A DNA stretch of 32,000 bases from Xenorhabdus doucetiae (GTDB lineage Bacteria > Pseudomonadota > Gammaproteobacteria > Enterobacterales > Enterobacteriaceae). Made by a program: the position numbers and the translations under genes. Location: positions 3,428,760 to 3,460,759 of the forward strand of contig NZ_FO704550.1 of the NCBI RefSeq assembly GCF_000968195.1, read 5' to 3'. Positions within the stretch are counted from its first letter, which is position 1; each line of letters starts with the position of its first letter. Below, one piece after another: positions 7,340-9,471 of the stretch. The notes beneath the pieces were generated by a model. That model was not told the DNA's origin. It saw only the letters and a list, made by a program, of their open reading frames with translations, and made no database searches.

Positions 7340-7370
7340 ATGATAAAAAAGCCCCTGACATTCAGAGGCT
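7340..7370 (-). terminator. Rho-independent terminator closing the Hcp-like cassette
   Basis: Minus-strand RNA: AGCCUCUG-AAUGU-CAGGGGCU followed by UUUUUUAUCAUUUUU. The single non-Watson-Crick pair is G.U on the minus strand but C.A on the plus strand, which supports the minus orientation. Confidence 0.7.
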
Positions 7371-7416
7371 AAACTTGCGAAAACATGAGGACGAAACATT
7401 TACAAAATCTTACACT

Positions 7417-7827
7417 TTACAAATGAAAGTATTGGAGGATTTGACTCCACCATTTTTTGTCTTCATCCTTGACTGGAATATCATATTCATCACAACATAA
7501 AATATAAAAATAATTCAATTTACCATGAGGAAATCCGTAATTATCTCCAATCATTATGGCATCACTTACCATATAATATGGATAGCTTTGACCAATATAT
7601 TTATTGTCTTTATACAACACAGCAAAATAGGGTGCTGGTTTTGTTAAAAAATAATAAAGCCCGATTGGATTTATAGGAAGAGTGTCATAAAAAACAACAT
7701 GGTAATTATCTTCGCTTCTTTCCATTCTTTCTAGAAAAGATGGTAAAAAGGTTACATGTGATAAAAAGAACCACCATAGAAAAAATATAGCAAATAATCC
7801 ATATTTTATAAATTTAATCATCTTCAT
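7417..7827 (-). CDS. 136-aa membrane-anchored protein of unknown function (candidate immunity or partner protein)
   Basis: One N-terminal hydrophobic helix (KYGLFAIFFLWWFFLSHVTFL) is followed by a Tyr-rich soluble domain. The gene overlaps the upstream gene by 14 nt. It is very AT-rich. I recognise no family. Confidence 0.6.
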   Translation of the reverse strand: MKMIKFIKYGLFAIFFLWWFFLSHVTFLPSFLERMERSEDNYHVVFYDTLPINPIGLYYFLTKPAPYFAVLYKDNKYIGQSYPYYMVSDAIMIGDNYGFPHGKLNYFYILCCDEYDIPVKDEDKKWWSQILQYFHL

Positions 7828-8728
7828 ATATTATTTTGTCCTTCTCTAATGGTTCTGTCCAATACACATCAGAAAAGACAATAAAGTCCCCTCCTTCCTT
7901 ATGGATGTCTTGCCACTCCCTAAAGTCTCTGTTAAAAACAGGAACATATCCTTTGTAGTGTCTATATAGCCACCCAAAATCTTTAGCCATAAAACTAGCC
8001 ATATATCCTGCCATTTCCTTTTTAGCAACAATTCCATCTCTTGACCATATACCTAATACCTCACTTGCAATATTGTATCTATCAGGAATGCCAATCCCCG
8101 CCATTGGCTTATGTTGGTCATTGAAATCGTATGTATCCTTTATATAAAAACCCAATTTTTTAACTATGAATTTTTTCCTGCCACCTGTTATATCGAAATA
8201 CCCCCTTACTGCAACTTTTAAAATACCAACTCCTATCGCTCCCATTAATTCATCAATTGTATCATCATATTCACCGAATTCTCTAAAATTAATTTGAGAG
8301 TAATAATCAAGCTGAACCGCCTTATCTTCACCACCTATGTTTATAAGCCCATTCACTTCATTTTTTTCATTTCTTTTATATATATCAACAAATAATCTTT
8401 TTTTTCCTTTTGGACTAGCCCAAACGTTCTTTAGCTCATCGATTTTTTTATTTACTACTTCATAGTGCATCGCCCAATCCATTTTCACTATTGAATCATT
8501 TACCCTTTCTTGAGGTATATTAATTGAAGGTCCATTTATGTATTTACTTTTTGTTTCAGTATCCAATCTAAAATCTTTTTCAAAAGAAAACCAATGTTTC
8601 ATCAAAGCTGATGCTGTCGTCCATCCCATCTTATCCATAATTTTTGGAATATCATAAAGCGATAATTCATCAAATAGAATCGTTGTAGTTTCACCGCCTT
8701 TAACGGTTTTTGTTTTTAAAATACTCAT
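7814..8728 (-). CDS. 304-aa protein of unknown function (candidate Hcp-associated effector; possibly DUF6402-like, tentative)
   Basis: The ATG overlaps the Hcp-like stop (ATGA at 8725..8728). The N-terminal ...IPKIMDKMGWTTASALMKHWF...VKMDWAM... resembles my recollection of DUF6402 proteins found next to orphan hcp genes. I recognise no catalytic motif. Confidence 0.6.
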   Translation of the reverse strand: MSILKTKTVKGGETTTILFDELSLYDIPKIMDKMGWTTASALMKHWFSFEKDFRLDTETKSKYINGPSINIPQERVNDSIVKMDWAMHYEVVNKKIDELKNVWASPKGKKRLFVDIYKRNEKNEVNGLINIGGEDKAVQLDYYSQINFREFGEYDDTIDELMGAIGVGILKVAVRGYFDITGGRKKFIVKKLGFYIKDTYDFNDQHKPMAGIGIPDRYNIASEVLGIWSRDGIVAKKEMAGYMASFMAKDFGWLYRHYKGYVPVFNRDFREWQDIHKEGGDFIVFSDVYWTEPLEKDKIIYEDD

Positions 8729-9471
8729 TTTTTCATCCCTATTTTTGTTTGGTATAAATATTCAACTTCGAGATCTTCCTCTTCTTTTGAATTTATCGTA
8801 TCCGTGATGCCTGTCTCTTTCGAAATGCCTTTTTTCAGTCCCTTCGCCGTATTTATACCATAAGCAACATGGCAACAATTATCCCCAGTAACCTCATTTT
8901 TCAGCGTAAATTTTTTGCTAAATAAAGCCTCTATTGCTGTCTCAAGTGGCTTAATTAACGACGAAAATCCAGACAAAAGCGGCCTTTCCTCTTCACGCCC
9001 CTGTAATTGCGATATTGCGTAACCCGTTGTCCCTGCCGCGCGATGCGTGAATGACATCGACTTATAATCAAGCTGCACCGTTTCATACGGGATCTGATCG
9101 TTGTCATCAATGGAGTGCGGATAATGACAGGAAAAATCAACAATGGTTGCGCCTGTCAATTTAATTTCATAAAAAAATTCCAATTGCCCGGCAAGGTTTA
9201 CGCGGTAACACTTAAAAAGGGCATCCAGCAACTCGTTCTTGTCTATTGCTAACCCCAACAACGGGGAGGATTTATCAATGGGTTTGGTAAAGCTGACCGG
9301 AAGGTGATTGACGTTCTGATCGCGTGTCATCATGTGGCTGAGGTGCAATACCTGTATTTCATCTTCCCGCCCGGCCTGATAGCGGTTGCCGATAGATTCG
9401 GGGGTTGAACAGCCCGCCGAGATTAAGCCTTGTTTCTTGCCCTTTAATGACAAGTAAATGAGATATGACAT
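8725..9471 (-). CDS. hcp: Hcp/TssD-family (T6SS tube) protein with ~85-aa C-terminal extension
   Basis: MSYLIYLSLKGKKQGLISAGCSTPESIGNRYQAGREDEIQVL...FTKPIDKSSPLL...YEIKLTGATIV...AAGTTGYA matches the Hcp family pattern (IYLxLxGxxQGLISxG..SIGN..HEDEI). Residues ~161-248 are unassigned. An AGGAG Shine-Dalgarno (SD) motif lies at 9482..9478. Confidence 0.8.
   Translation of the reverse strand: MSYLIYLSLKGKKQGLISAGCSTPESIGNRYQAGREDEIQVLHLSHMMTRDQNVNHLPVSFTKPIDKSSPLLGLAIDKNELLDALFKCYRVNLAGQLEFFYEIKLTGATIVDFSCHYPHSIDDNDQIPYETVQLDYKSMSFTHRAAGTTGYAISQLQGREEERPLLSGFSSLIKPLETAIEALFSKKFTLKNEVTGDNCCHVAYGINTAKGLKKGISKETGITDTINSKEEEDLEVEYLYQTKIGMKK

Follow-up and report, generated by a model that had tools for sequence, protein, structure and literature searches.

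The 32,000 nucleotides of Xenorhabdus doucetiae DNA analysed here (the window) raise the question of why a 15.1-kb capsid-forming phage satellite (cf-PICI) should carry, between its iteron origin and its capsid gene, a cassette of three overlapping minus-strand genes encoding an Hcp of 248 aa, a DUF6402 protein of 304 aa and a DUF6201 protein of 136 aa (Table 1). A preliminary description had offered two answers, an orphan Hcp-effector-immunity module or an anti-phage or helper-interference system. On the evidence presented below, satellite cargo in the form of an auxiliary type VI secretion (T6SS) effector module is the very probable explanation.

Table 1. Features of the cassette and of the satellite that carries it (window coordinates)
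Feature	Position	Strand	Remarks
Hcp ORF	8725..9471	(-)	248 aa
Hcp (TssD) core, residues 1-150	9022..9471	(-)	T6SS_HCP, TIGR03344
Hcp C-terminal extension: linker and TTR-like domain (core about residues 181-248)	8725..9021	(-)	stop codon included
DUF6402 ORF	7814..8728	(-)	304 aa, PF19940
Constant N-terminal segment of candidate effector, about 46 codons	8591..8728	(-)	100% DNA identity to L001 until about 8591, then abrupt drop
DUF6201 ORF	7417..7827	(-)	136 aa, PF19703
DUF6201 single N-terminal TM helix, residues 10-28, after Lys-rich N-terminus	7744..7800	(-)	GLFAIFFLWWFFLSHVTFL, Kyte-Doolittle 19-residue maximum 1.87
Exchanged module: predicted toxin body (residues about 47-304) and immunity gene	7391..8590	(-)	DNA comparison with L001
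Shine-Dalgarno AGGAG of Hcp	9478..9482	(-)	6 nt 5' of ATG at 9471, read from sequence
Intrinsic-terminator-like hairpin, 3' end of cassette	7350..7370	(-)	9-bp stem, 5 GC pairs, T-run
HK97-type major capsid gene, downstream edge of cargo slot	6139..7287	(-)	Phage_capsid E=7.5e-62
Iteron-type replication origin	9746..9970	.	GGTGTACAGTT-like repeats, both orientations
D5-type primase-helicase, upstream edge of cargo slot	9993..11672	(-)	Pox_D5, D5_N, DUF5906, Toprim_3
Integrase gene	13860-15083
Large terminase gene, frameshifted	1089..2751	(-)	TerL ATPase domain split over ORFs 2197-2751 and 1089-2234
Left 21-bp direct repeat, putative att site	101..121	.	AGTAATTATATATAGTCTGCA, 20/21 positions identical to right copy
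Right 21-bp direct repeat, putative att site	15232..15252	.	just past integrase gene

The three leftward ORFs were recovered, and both of their overlaps at the positions given earlier, with a 4-nt ATGA overlap joining the Hcp and DUF6402 genes (8725-8728) and a 14-nt overlap joining the DUF6402 and DUF6201 genes (7814-7827). The operon had been credited with its own Shine-Dalgarno sequence and its own terminator, and both were found, the terminator being 97% conserved in the sister satellite L001; a scan of the region returned six terminator-like sites versus 2.0 +/- 1.5 in shuffles. The suggested AT-richness holds for DUF6201 (28.5% GC), DUF6402 (32.9%) and the Hcp tail (38.1%), the capsid, protease and portal genes having 51-54% GC, but not for the Hcp core, whose 46.7% GC is host-like and close to that of the island (45.2%) and of the chromosomal flank (45.4%). 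The term 'acquired moron' is hence apt only in part, as it suits the AT-rich and exchanged toxin body and immunity gene, but not the host-like Hcp core or the recurrence of Hcp-linked cassettes among relatives. Pfam scans of 36 ORFs, including all long non-nested ORFs of >=90 aa, revealed no T6SS gene besides Hcp in the window, in agreement with the preliminary description.

The satellite context was borne out in all its cf-PICI components, since the island encodes an integrase, AlpA, a Zn-ribbon primase, a D5 helicase, capsid, S78 protease, portal, head completion protein, connector, HNH, TerS and TerL, and Pfam detected no tail or lysis/holin family among its ORFs. Its gene content and the absence of tail and lysis genes place it among the cf-PICIs, with a size of 15.1 kb as compared with the criterion of about 14 kb; this size is the spacing (15,131 bp) of the 21-bp repeats that bound the island. 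The iteron repeats, previously placed at 9751..9968, were found with slightly wider limits, and the adjacent D5 primase-helicase is 82-97% identical in sister satellites. The terL gene is a single 553-aa ORF in the relatives L011, L012 and L049, and its frameshift here implies that this copy of the satellite may no longer be mobile.

An Hcp/TssD identity for the N-terminal domain of the 248-aa protein is upheld by scores above the cutoffs of both T6SS_HCP PF05638 (E=9.5e-19, residues 6-143, 68.4 bits, cutoff 23.5) and TIGR03344 (E=1.6e-50, residues 1-153, 171.3 bits, cutoff 58.9, model positions 1-163 of 167), and the core matched the solved Hcp structures 5mxn, 3he1 and 6a2v with E-values of about 1e-21. 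The tail gave no match in Pfam, even at E<=10. In a database of 177,635 sequences, a profile of this tail matched the C-terminal region of EAEC VgrG1 (6sjl residues 779-830, E=5.9e-4) and, for P. aeruginosa VgrG2b, the N-terminal portion of its effector-domain construct (6h56 residues 10-54, E=3.4e-4), and the domain order in PMC7043769 and PMC10433429 leads us to identify both matched regions as probable TTR domains. At modest E-values of 3e-4 to 6e-4, the Hcp tail is most likely a transthyretin-like (TTR) domain, homologous to the cargo-binding TTR of VgrG1; its single-sequence fold model reached a pLDDT of only 33. In VgrG proteins, the TTR domain binds the effector whose gene follows directly, and a TTR swap brings about a swap in specificity (PMC7043769, PMC10433429). 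The tail domain of the satellite Hcp recurs at the very C-terminal end of 55 carriers (Hcp, PAAR or VgrG), all of them encoded directly upstream of a DUF6402 gene, and this strict adjacency supports the predicted binding between tail and effector. Judged by sequence, the TTR tail seems common to all three carrier types.

The tentative assignment of the 304-aa protein to DUF6402 turned out to be right (PF19940, E=3.5e-70). This protein has no hydrophobic segment (maximum Kyte-Doolittle 1.23), and the AlphaFold2 modelling and Foldseek search that had been proposed for it yielded a confident model (pLDDT 87.8, pTM 0.84) with no neighbour in the PDB (best E=0.79). A D-x-Y-D-F motif, in which D198 is invariant, is located at the end of a long beta-hairpin. 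Comparison with a 90-sequence ColM profile by hhalign gave a weak match over 39 columns (probability 5.2%, P=0.0075), and the Foldseek match to syringacin M was only E=2.4. A speculative best guess is that DUF6402 could be an Asp-based hydrolase acting on a cell-envelope substrate, possibly by colicin-M-like cleavage of lipid II. The N-terminal segment of about 46 residues is proposed to dock on the TTR tail, although co-variation with the tail was no stronger for this N-terminus (rho 0.51) than for the effector body (rho 0.55). Neither DUF6402 nor DUF6201 is mentioned by name in the literature searched. DUF6402 homologues were absent from 50,697 phage records. A DUF6402-like fold was observed in one metagenomic phage 'tail protein'.

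The 136-aa protein belongs to DUF6201 (PF19703, E=4.4e-16) and has the single N-terminal TM helix that had been ascribed to it, with an N-in/C-out topology expected from the positive-inside rule. It is predicted to serve as the cognate immunity protein, with its helix as an inner-membrane anchor and its body exposed to the periplasm. The presence of one N-terminal TM helix in DUF6201 and of none in the effector points to the periplasm as the probable site of effector action. Cmi, the immunity protein of colicin M, is anchored by an N-terminal helix; the DUF6201 profile gave no match to Cmi. Of the 74 ORFs taken from downstream of DUF6402 at other loci, Pfam identified 30 as DUF6201; jackhmmer detected it in 39 loci, and tandem arrays of three to six DUF6201 copies occur downstream of the effector.

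Linkage to T6SS carriers extends well beyond the satellite. Across 79 genomes, DUF6402 genes occur directly behind Hcp, PAAR or VgrG genes, and in 71 loci from Gamma- and Betaproteobacteria the gene immediately upstream encodes PAAR in 17 cases, Hcp in 14, VgrG in about five and Rhs in one (37/71). The DUF6402-DUF6201 pair also resides in ordinary VgrG/PAAR T6SS auxiliary islands outside satellites, as exemplified by Pectobacterium parmentieri, where the order VgrG-PAAR-DUF6402-DUF6201 is found beside other toxin/immunity pairs. Members of the DUF6402 family are present in plant, bee-gut, aquatic and soil bacteria such as Pectobacterium, Snodgrassella, Aeromonas and Acidovorax, and within this locus set only Xenorhabdus and Photorhabdus have the Hcp-linked form. 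In loci of the Acidovorax and Luteibacter types, both the tail and DUF6201 went undetected. Thus, DUF6402 exhibits the features of a T6SS cargo effector with its immunity gene, namely linkage to carriers and an adjacent, co-oriented and co-varying small gene that occurs in tandem copies.

Comparison of the satellites with each other revealed a steep gradient of divergence, with identities of 82-97% in the backbone, 67-99% in the Hcp core, 55-98% in the tail, 40-69% in the effector and 27-65% in the immunity protein. Relative to L001, a module comprising the toxin body and the immunity gene retains 52-82% DNA identity over most of its length (30% in one 60-nt indel window), whereas the flanking DNA is 90-100% identical upstream and 92-97% identical downstream, with sharp breakpoints at about 8590 and about 7391. 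This pattern shows that sister satellites, 94-98% identical in their backbone, have swapped the toxin body and immunity gene as one unit, so that each satellite has its own predicted weapon-and-antidote allele. X. doucetiae contains three cassette-bearing satellites with different alleles and one relic, and the effectors of these four cassettes are 46-69% identical pairwise. The three ORFs are intact and overlapping, with their order kept in more than 20 satellites and relics, and intact cassettes persist in the decayed satellites L002, L007, L013, L015, L023 and L030, which have lost capsid, portal or integrase genes. An unbiased survey of the origin-to-capsid slot, a comparison suggested at the outset, located an Hcp gene in 22 of 80 related satellites, together with at least two unrelated effector families. 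The E. coli relatives have an SSB with PerC or ProQ/FinO in this slot. Some related satellites have slots with a short Hcp followed by junk ORFs, showing that Hcp-linked cassettes do decay.

The linkage to Hcp, PAAR and VgrG, the common TTR tail, the DUF6201 arrays and the toxin-immunity swap lend strong comparative-genomic support to the orphan Hcp-effector-immunity module on a satellite. We infer secretion, toxicity, periplasmic action, N-terminal docking and a benefit to the satellite, which would come about in the following manner. The first gene would provide an Hcp tube subunit whose C-terminal TTR domain hooks the protein encoded next, the 304-aa DUF6402 toxin, which would dock on this tail by its constant N-terminal residues. 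The loaded Hcp would be fired into neighbouring bacteria by one of the chromosomally encoded T6SS machines of the host; the X. doucetiae type strain is reported to have homologues of the two complete T6SS loci of Xenorhabdus (PMC11566119). The toxin would then act in the periplasm, and DUF6201, with its membrane-anchored periplasmic body, would protect the producer and its kin. An allele of its own in each satellite should help the host to compete and should put cells without the satellite at a disadvantage. It is difficult to see how a cargo of about 34 kDa, tethered to the C-terminus of Hcp, would be loaded inside the narrow Hcp lumen, and extended Hcp proteins are rare and mostly toxin fusions (10.1101/2023.03.26.534264).

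The alternative of an anti-phage or helper-interference system, with Hcp as a tail-tube mimic or with toxin and antidote as an abortive-infection pair that shields the host of the satellite or manipulates the helper phage, draws on the position of the cassette in the variable accessory slot of the satellite, where E. coli relatives have other cargo, and on the known role of satellites as a reservoir of defence systems (PMC10085698, PMC13612085). A VasI-like T6SS-associated fold has moreover been co-opted for phage defence in Serratia (10.1101/2024.01.28.577318), and the phage tail protein with a DUF6402-like fold could be taken in the same direction. However, PADLOC (at E<=0.1) and PHROGs contain no family matching Hcp, DUF6402 or DUF6201, the phage records are devoid of DUF6402 homologues, the pair occurs behind PAAR and VgrG in islands that are not satellites, the Hcp tail matches the VgrG1 region taken as a cargo-binding TTR, the tandem arrays of DUF6201 fit orphan immunity genes rather than abortive infection, and the cassette outlasts capsid, portal and integrase genes. 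The reading thus found no support and is regarded as unlikely.

Delivery into eukaryotic cells, in which Hcp-TTR would carry DUF6402 into insect or nematode cells with DUF6201 as a chaperone or regulator, would accord with the restriction of the Hcp-linked form to the entomopathogens Xenorhabdus and Photorhabdus, and with the support that hcp and vgrG are reported to give to nematode colonisation by X. bovienii, as cited in PMC11566119. This is nonetheless very unlikely, as a translationally coupled, membrane-anchored, co-diversifying and arrayed partner is a hallmark of antibacterial effector-immunity pairs and the family extends to bacteria of plants, bee guts, water and soil. The slightest probability is given to a non-functional remnant or to a lysis module of the satellite, with DUF6402 degrading the wall and DUF6201 acting as a holin-like protein. 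The lack of lysis genes in cf-PICIs (PMC10085698), the frameshift in terL and the decay of cassettes in relatives are compatible with it, but the ORFs have stayed intact, overlapping and in order, the cassette outlives the structural genes of its satellites, just the reverse of the outcome expected for a lysis function, DUF6402-DUF6201 is linked to PAAR/VgrG elsewhere, and a lysis module needs neither polymorphic allele swaps nor arrays of small genes.

If the cassette is a T6SS effector module, a bolder extension, possible but doubtful, is that this satellite lineage acts as a dedicated shuttle for polymorphic Hcp-linked T6SS cassettes, that Hcp-TTR represents a hitherto unrecognised mode of loading large cargo on the T6SS tube and not on the spike, and that DUF6402 is a periplasmic toxin with a new fold, perhaps remotely analogous to colicin M and directed against lipid II. 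The satellite allele would then make carriers kill non-carriers and so serve as an addiction or kin-discrimination device, which would drive retention of the satellite and let several satellites co-reside in one genome. The cassette would in this manner provide the satellite with a selfish means of retention. According to the summary in PMC13612085, cf-PICI capsids are reported to take up the tails of unrelated phages and thereby to reach a larger number of strains, and such tail capture would open a virion-based route for T6SS alleles between strains and species. DUF6402 and DUF6201 themselves constitute an uncharacterised, widespread candidate effector-immunity family, a cargo-specific TTR adaptor on Hcp, PAAR and VgrG alike is suited to carrier-swap experiments, and an adaptor-tailed Hcp challenges the idea that Hcp carries only small cargo in its lumen.

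All parts of the cassette are of known kinds, but there seems to be no earlier description of the effector family, of the Hcp-TTR fusion or of a satellite as the vehicle. Like EAEC VgrG1-Tle1-Tli1 and P. aeruginosa VgrG4b-PldA and VgrG5-PldB, it has a predicted C-terminal TTR on a T6SS structural protein, and the gene order is the same as in those modules, in which the TTR binds the effector encoded next and a periplasmic immunity gene follows (PMC7043769, PMC10433429). Unlike in them, the TTR is on the Hcp tube subunit and not on the spike, the module is borne by a phage satellite, and the effector is DUF6402 and not a Tle/Pld lipase. With E. coli Hcp-ET1 to Hcp-ET5 the cassette shares an orphan hcp with a C-terminal extension, located apart from the main T6SS cluster, with an immunity gene behind it (10.1101/2023.03.26.534264). 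However, the Hcp-ET extension is itself the toxin (DNase and others), whereas here an extension of about 95 aa is predicted to be a non-toxic adaptor with the toxin as separate cargo, and the host is a member of the Morganellaceae, whereas 91% of genomes with evolved Hcp belong to Escherichia (10.1101/2023.03.26.534264). Colicin M resembles DUF6402 in having a D-x-Y-D-F motif at the end of a beta-hairpin, a periplasmic action (presumed for DUF6402) and a small immunity protein, but DUF6402 does not conserve the His-Arg pair of its DxYD(x5)HR motif, has no Colicin_M profile match in Pfam or PDB sequences and is not filed as a member. The satellite itself corresponds to the EcCIEDL933-type cf-PICIs, with integrase, AlpA, primase and the capsid-to-TerL set in about 15 kb without tail or lysis genes, and that clade already included Xenorhabdus (10.1101/2022.09.08.507074). 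Published accounts of cf-PICIs stress minimal accessory content or defence cargo, in contrast to the T6SS cassette found here, and T6SS or Hcp cargo is unmentioned in the cf-PICI descriptions of 10.1101/2022.09.08.507074, PMC10085698 and PMC13612085. Exchangeable T6SS effector-immunity pairs as mobile cargo are also known from the Vibrio GMT islands and the Serratia LptG-YjiA islands (10.1101/2024.01.28.577318), but these are integrative islands or hotspots without their own capsids, an Hcp-TTR carrier or a lineage-wide slot. Satellites have so far been discussed chiefly as carriers of anti-phage defence and virulence, and this lineage repeatedly carries what would be interbacterial weapons; with versions of the cassette swapped among related islands in many species, satellites appear to spread weapons besides anti-phage defences.

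The cassette carried by the Xenorhabdus doucetiae satellite very probably represents a satellite-borne auxiliary T6SS module, made up of an Hcp carrier with a transthyretin-like (TTR) tail, a periplasmic DUF6402 toxin and a DUF6201 immunity protein. The three minus-strand ORFs of the preliminary description are found at the same coordinates, with both the ATGA and the 14-nt overlaps, their own AGGAG Shine-Dalgarno sequence and their own terminator, and its assignment of an Hcp/TssD N-terminal domain and its tentative link to DUF6402 turned out to be right. The GC content drops step by step along the cassette, from 46.7% in the Hcp core to 38.1% in its tail, 32.9% in DUF6402 and 28.5% in DUF6201, as compared to 51-54% for the capsid, protease and portal genes and about 45% for the island with its chromosomal flank. 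Thus, the AT-richness earlier ascribed to the whole operon holds for the tail, DUF6402 and DUF6201, but not for the Hcp core, which lies near the island value. A promoter scan gave 13 sites versus 11.2 in shuffled sequence, hence no excess and no convincing promoter in the region, and megablast of the cassette DNA against E. coli genomes, phages and plasmids revealed no near-identical match. Only some 60 nt separate the strong terminator, in the interval 7288-7370, from the start codon of the capsid gene that follows it.

Features of the Hcp-DUF6402-DUF6201 cassette and its upstream region
Feature	Coordinates	Strand	Observation
Hcp gene	8725..9471	-	T6SS_HCP/TssD for residues 1-153 (Pfam, NCBIfam)
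DUF6402 gene	7814..8728	-	Pfam/NCBIfam match, E=3.5e-70
DUF6201 gene	7417..7827	-	Pfam/NCBIfam match, E=4.4e-16
Shine-Dalgarno AGGAG	six nt 5' of first (Hcp) ATG	-	present
Terminator, strong hairpin then T-run	7370-7350	-	ends cassette unit
Iterons, GGTGTACAGTT-type	9746-9970		upstream of cassette

The island around the cassette is a capsid-forming PICI (cf-PICI), the setting proposed earlier being borne out by its gene content: integrase, AlpA, Zn-ribbon primase and D5 helicase precede the cassette, which is followed by capsid, S78 protease, portal, head-completion protein, connector, HNH, TerS, TerL and an HTH protein. Its ends are a 21-bp direct repeat with copies 15,131 bp apart, and it adjoins the enterobacterial core genes qor, dusA, zur, lexA, plsB, pgi and lysC. 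As had been noted, the window holds no other T6SS gene; for the type strain of X. doucetiae, a species with an identical DUF6402 protein on record, homologues of each of the two complete T6SS loci of Xenorhabdus are reported (PMC11566119). The TerL gene (1089-2751, minus strand) consists of two overlapping ORFs of 184 and 381 aa, split in the ATPase domain, and since this frameshift is absent in three relatives with a single 553-aa ORF (L011, L012 and L049), this copy of the satellite may be defective; an A-run near 2290 may mark either the frameshift or a sequencing error. Elsewhere in the window, an AT-rich gene (38-42% GC) for a 381-aa DUF1266 protein between dusA and zur (17594-18739, minus strand) looks like an insertion in the core region, and an overlapping pair encoding a RelE-family toxin and an HTH antitoxin-like protein lies between lysC and iclR (28471-29095, minus strand).

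Because neither DUF6402 nor DUF6201 is named in the literature searched, the argument for the identity of the cassette is comparative. A second satellite of X. doucetiae has the same gene triad, as does a chromosomal site, and in Pectobacterium parmentieri VgrG and a 174-aa PAAR protein are followed by DUF6402-DUF6201, with further toxin/immunity pairs adjoining. A scan of species-representative genomes with an alignment query gave 79 DUF6402 loci in Gamma- and Betaproteobacteria; a genome-contig scan with the single protein gave no relatives. The ORF immediately 5' of DUF6402 (n=71) encodes PAAR in 17 cases, Hcp in 14, VgrG in about five and Rhs in one. On the 3' side, DUF6201 was detected by Pfam in 30 of 74 other loci, and jackhmmer found at least one copy in 39 loci, in tandem arrays of up to six. 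Such multi-copy arrays behind one effector gene are typical of T6SS immunity genes, and the same logic has been applied to DUF3289/DUF943 (10.1101/2023.03.26.534264). DUF6201 has the one N-terminal transmembrane helix predicted earlier, preceded by a Lys-rich start, so that by the positive-inside rule its immunity domain is predicted to face the periplasm, and for this reason the putative toxin, which has no hydrophobic segment, should act there. Comparison of DUF6201 with PDB sequences, including Cmi, returned only chance lectin-like fragments.

Distant DUF6402 homologues (~24% identity) occur on the Burkholderia contaminans plasmid NZ_CP082810.1 (locus L088) and 20 other plasmids of Burkholderia, Ralstonia and Caballeronia. 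In L088 (4713-6631), the sole such plasmid examined, the 420-aa homologue carries an N-terminal extension of about 100 aa and is followed by an overlapping 219-aa gene, with H-NS and integrase genes nearby and no adjoining Hcp, PAAR or VgrG gene. In an Acidovorax sp. locus (L054, 7520-10807), a DUF6402 domain ends a 1,095-aa ORF; here either the effector is fused to a carrier, or the reading frame is called too long because the genome is GC-rich. Neither TTR tail nor DUF6201 was detected in loci of the Acidovorax and Luteibacter group.

The Hcp extension of about 95 aa gives no hit in Pfam at a threshold as loose as E<=10, and a homologue search with it found no relatives, owing to the limited reach of its word index. 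In the set of retrieved loci, jackhmmer seeded with the tail placed this domain at the extreme C-terminus of 55 carriers, all directly 5' of a DUF6402 gene. The domain is mounted on Hcp in Xenorhabdus and Photorhabdus, on PAAR in Proteus, Aeromonas, Pectobacterium, Snodgrassella, Vibrio and several Betaproteobacteria, and on VgrG in Enterobacter, Kosakonia, X. mauleonii and Zooshikella. Its profile matches residues 779-830 of EAEC VgrG1 (6sjl, E=5.9e-4) and residues 10-54 of a C-terminal construct of P. aeruginosa VgrG2b (6h56, E=3.4e-4), stretches identified as transthyretin-like by the domain order in the respective papers. In VgrG proteins, the TTR domain binds the cargo effector of the gene immediately 3', and specificity moves with the domain when it is swapped (PMC7043769; PMC10433429). 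From the shared tail, the VgrG matches and this literature, the best reading of the extension is a TTR adaptor specific to DUF6402, which could be mounted on any of three secreted T6SS components. A single-sequence structure model of Hcp with its tail reached a pLDDT of 33.

For the 304-aa DUF6402 protein, the structural check suggested earlier yielded a confident AlphaFold2 model from a 47-sequence alignment (pLDDT 87.8, pTM 0.84) and no PDB neighbour in Foldseek (best E=0.79). The only significant structural match, at E=1.7e-10 and a TM of 0.57 over the query, is BFVD entry A0A8S5UBA3. This metagenomic protein of 668 aa, annotated 'Tail protein [Caudovirales sp.]', may be a tail or VgrG-like protein fused to a DUF6402-like domain. 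Invariant residues are D198, F202, N266, Q273, D281, S286 and six Trp, with Y200, R270 and D287 nearly so. As no Cys or His is conserved, a papain-like amidase, a Ser-His-Asp lipase and a zinc peptidase are all disfavored as the toxin type. Where a long beta-hairpin ends, DUF6402 has a K-D-T-Y-D-F motif similar to the signature of colicin M (ColM; sequence checked against 2xmx). The DUF6402 profile had no colicin M match among PDB sequences and Pfam at E<=10, BLASTP aligned the motif only, and hhalign with one ColM sequence covered 9 columns at a probability of 0.6%. Using a profile of 90 ColM-domain sequences, obtained by exhaustive HMMER search since a plain homologue search gave close relatives only, hhalign covered 39 columns (hairpin and motif) at a probability of 5.2% (P=0.0075). 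Because the His-Arg pair of ColM is not conserved in DUF6402 and all other sequence tests are negative, a lipid II-type target is a rather improbable lead. Separately, colicin M-like catalytic domains occupy the extreme C-termini of six proteins of 1,431-2,375 aa in the representative library (P0144, P0148, P0179, P0193, P0199 and P0211), a hint that some large polymorphic toxins have ColM-type tips.

Between the satellite of the window and others, backbone genes are 82-97% identical, and identity declines along the cassette: 67-99% in the Hcp core, 55-98% in the tail, 40-69% in DUF6402 and 27-65% in DUF6201. The DNA is 90-100% identical to that of the sister satellite L001 over the stretch from the helicase, across Hcp and its tail, to the first ~46 DUF6402 codons, 52-82% from ~8590 to ~7391 (30% in one window at an indel), and again 92-97% at the terminator. 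From these breakpoints, the toxin body together with the immunity gene appears to be the exchanged unit, as in polymorphic toxin systems, and on the basis of this one recombination event the constant N-terminal part of DUF6402 is a candidate for docking. Across 44 loci, a test of whether the tail co-varies more with this part of the effector or with the effector body did not discriminate between them. X. doucetiae harbors four cassettes with effectors 46-69% identical to one another, in three complete satellites (that of the window, P0001; L089, P0005; L090, P0015) and one relic (L002, P0014). The complete cf-PICIs belong to one lineage with backbones 94-99% identical, and their effector-immunity alleles, including that of the relic, are all different; such co-residence of near-identical satellites in one genome is unusual. 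The cassette is intact in the relic L002, with only 22 capsid codons left, in L007, with only 19 helicase codons, in L023, where integrase and helicase are frameshifted and the segment from capsid to terL is deleted, and in L013, L015 and L030, with truncated capsid or portal genes. Since it outlasts the decay of these satellites, selection would seem to act on the cassette independently of satellite mobility.

With the conservation of the cassette, and its survival in decayed satellites, a lysis module or junk DNA is at odds and can be set aside, as can an anti-eukaryotic module, which fits neither the immunity arrays nor the broad ecological spread of the family. Anti-phage defence or helper interference, raised in the preliminary description, retains a small residual probability, given that co-option of T6SS-like folds for defence is on record; however, PADLOC, PHROGs and phage records lend it no support, and the PAAR and VgrG contexts of the pair contradict it. 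Carrier linkage, the shared tail, DUF6201 arrays and allele exchange all favor the Hcp-effector-immunity reading proposed alongside it.

The suggested survey of what related satellites carry in the slot was done on 80 satellites chosen by capsid homology alone (75-97% identity), by classifying the helicase-to-capsid interval. An Hcp gene occupies it in 22 of the 80, and the complete Hcp-TTR/DUF6402/DUF6201 triad in 8. Seven (L121, L125, L137, L140, L144, L146 and L149) carry a second, type-B cassette (e.g. L140 4476-6867), in which an extended Hcp of 243-254 aa is accompanied by a protein of ~400 aa and a lipobox-bearing lipoprotein of ~130 aa, the latter two having no Pfam family and no PDB sequence relative. 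The type-B Hcp shares its linker with the Hcp of the window and differs in its tail, for which a TTR identity finds no support (no match to the TTR profile; VgrG2b at E=1.2 only). Eight slots with a short Hcp (159-171 aa) and AT-rich degenerate ORFs (L110, L119, L122, L124, L127, L128, L143 and L145) look like decayed Hcp cassettes, L122 and L128 retaining an orphan copy of the type-B lipoprotein. In nine satellites (L103, L108, L111, L112, L138, L139, L148, L150 and L175), two overlapping genes, for an unassigned protein of 321 aa and a DUF1240 membrane protein of 131 aa (e.g. L175 5519-6876), could be another toxin-immunity or defence pair, and the other slots hold small genes, a CoiA-like nuclease or a tail-collar protein, or are empty. 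In E. coli cf-PICI relatives, in contrast, the same slot holds SSB with PerC or ProQ/FinO. In two of these relatives (L086 and L087, locus positions 1-3200), a second capsid/protease/portal set and a truncated TerL gene adjoin the cf-PICI, suggesting tandem or nested phage-like elements.

Every component of the cassette belongs to a known kind. No mention of T6SS cargo was found in the cf-PICI and satellite literature searched, and the recurrent use of this cargo slot for Hcp-linked weapons, the DUF6402/DUF6201 effector-immunity family, and the TTR adaptor common to Hcp, PAAR and VgrG with its placement on Hcp all appear undescribed in the literature searched. According to Geller et al. (10.1101/2023.03.26.534264), extended Hcp proteins constitute 2% of Hcp proteins and occur almost only in Escherichia, and the Hcp of the window differs from all their 'evolved Hcp' types in carrying an adaptor instead of a fused toxin.
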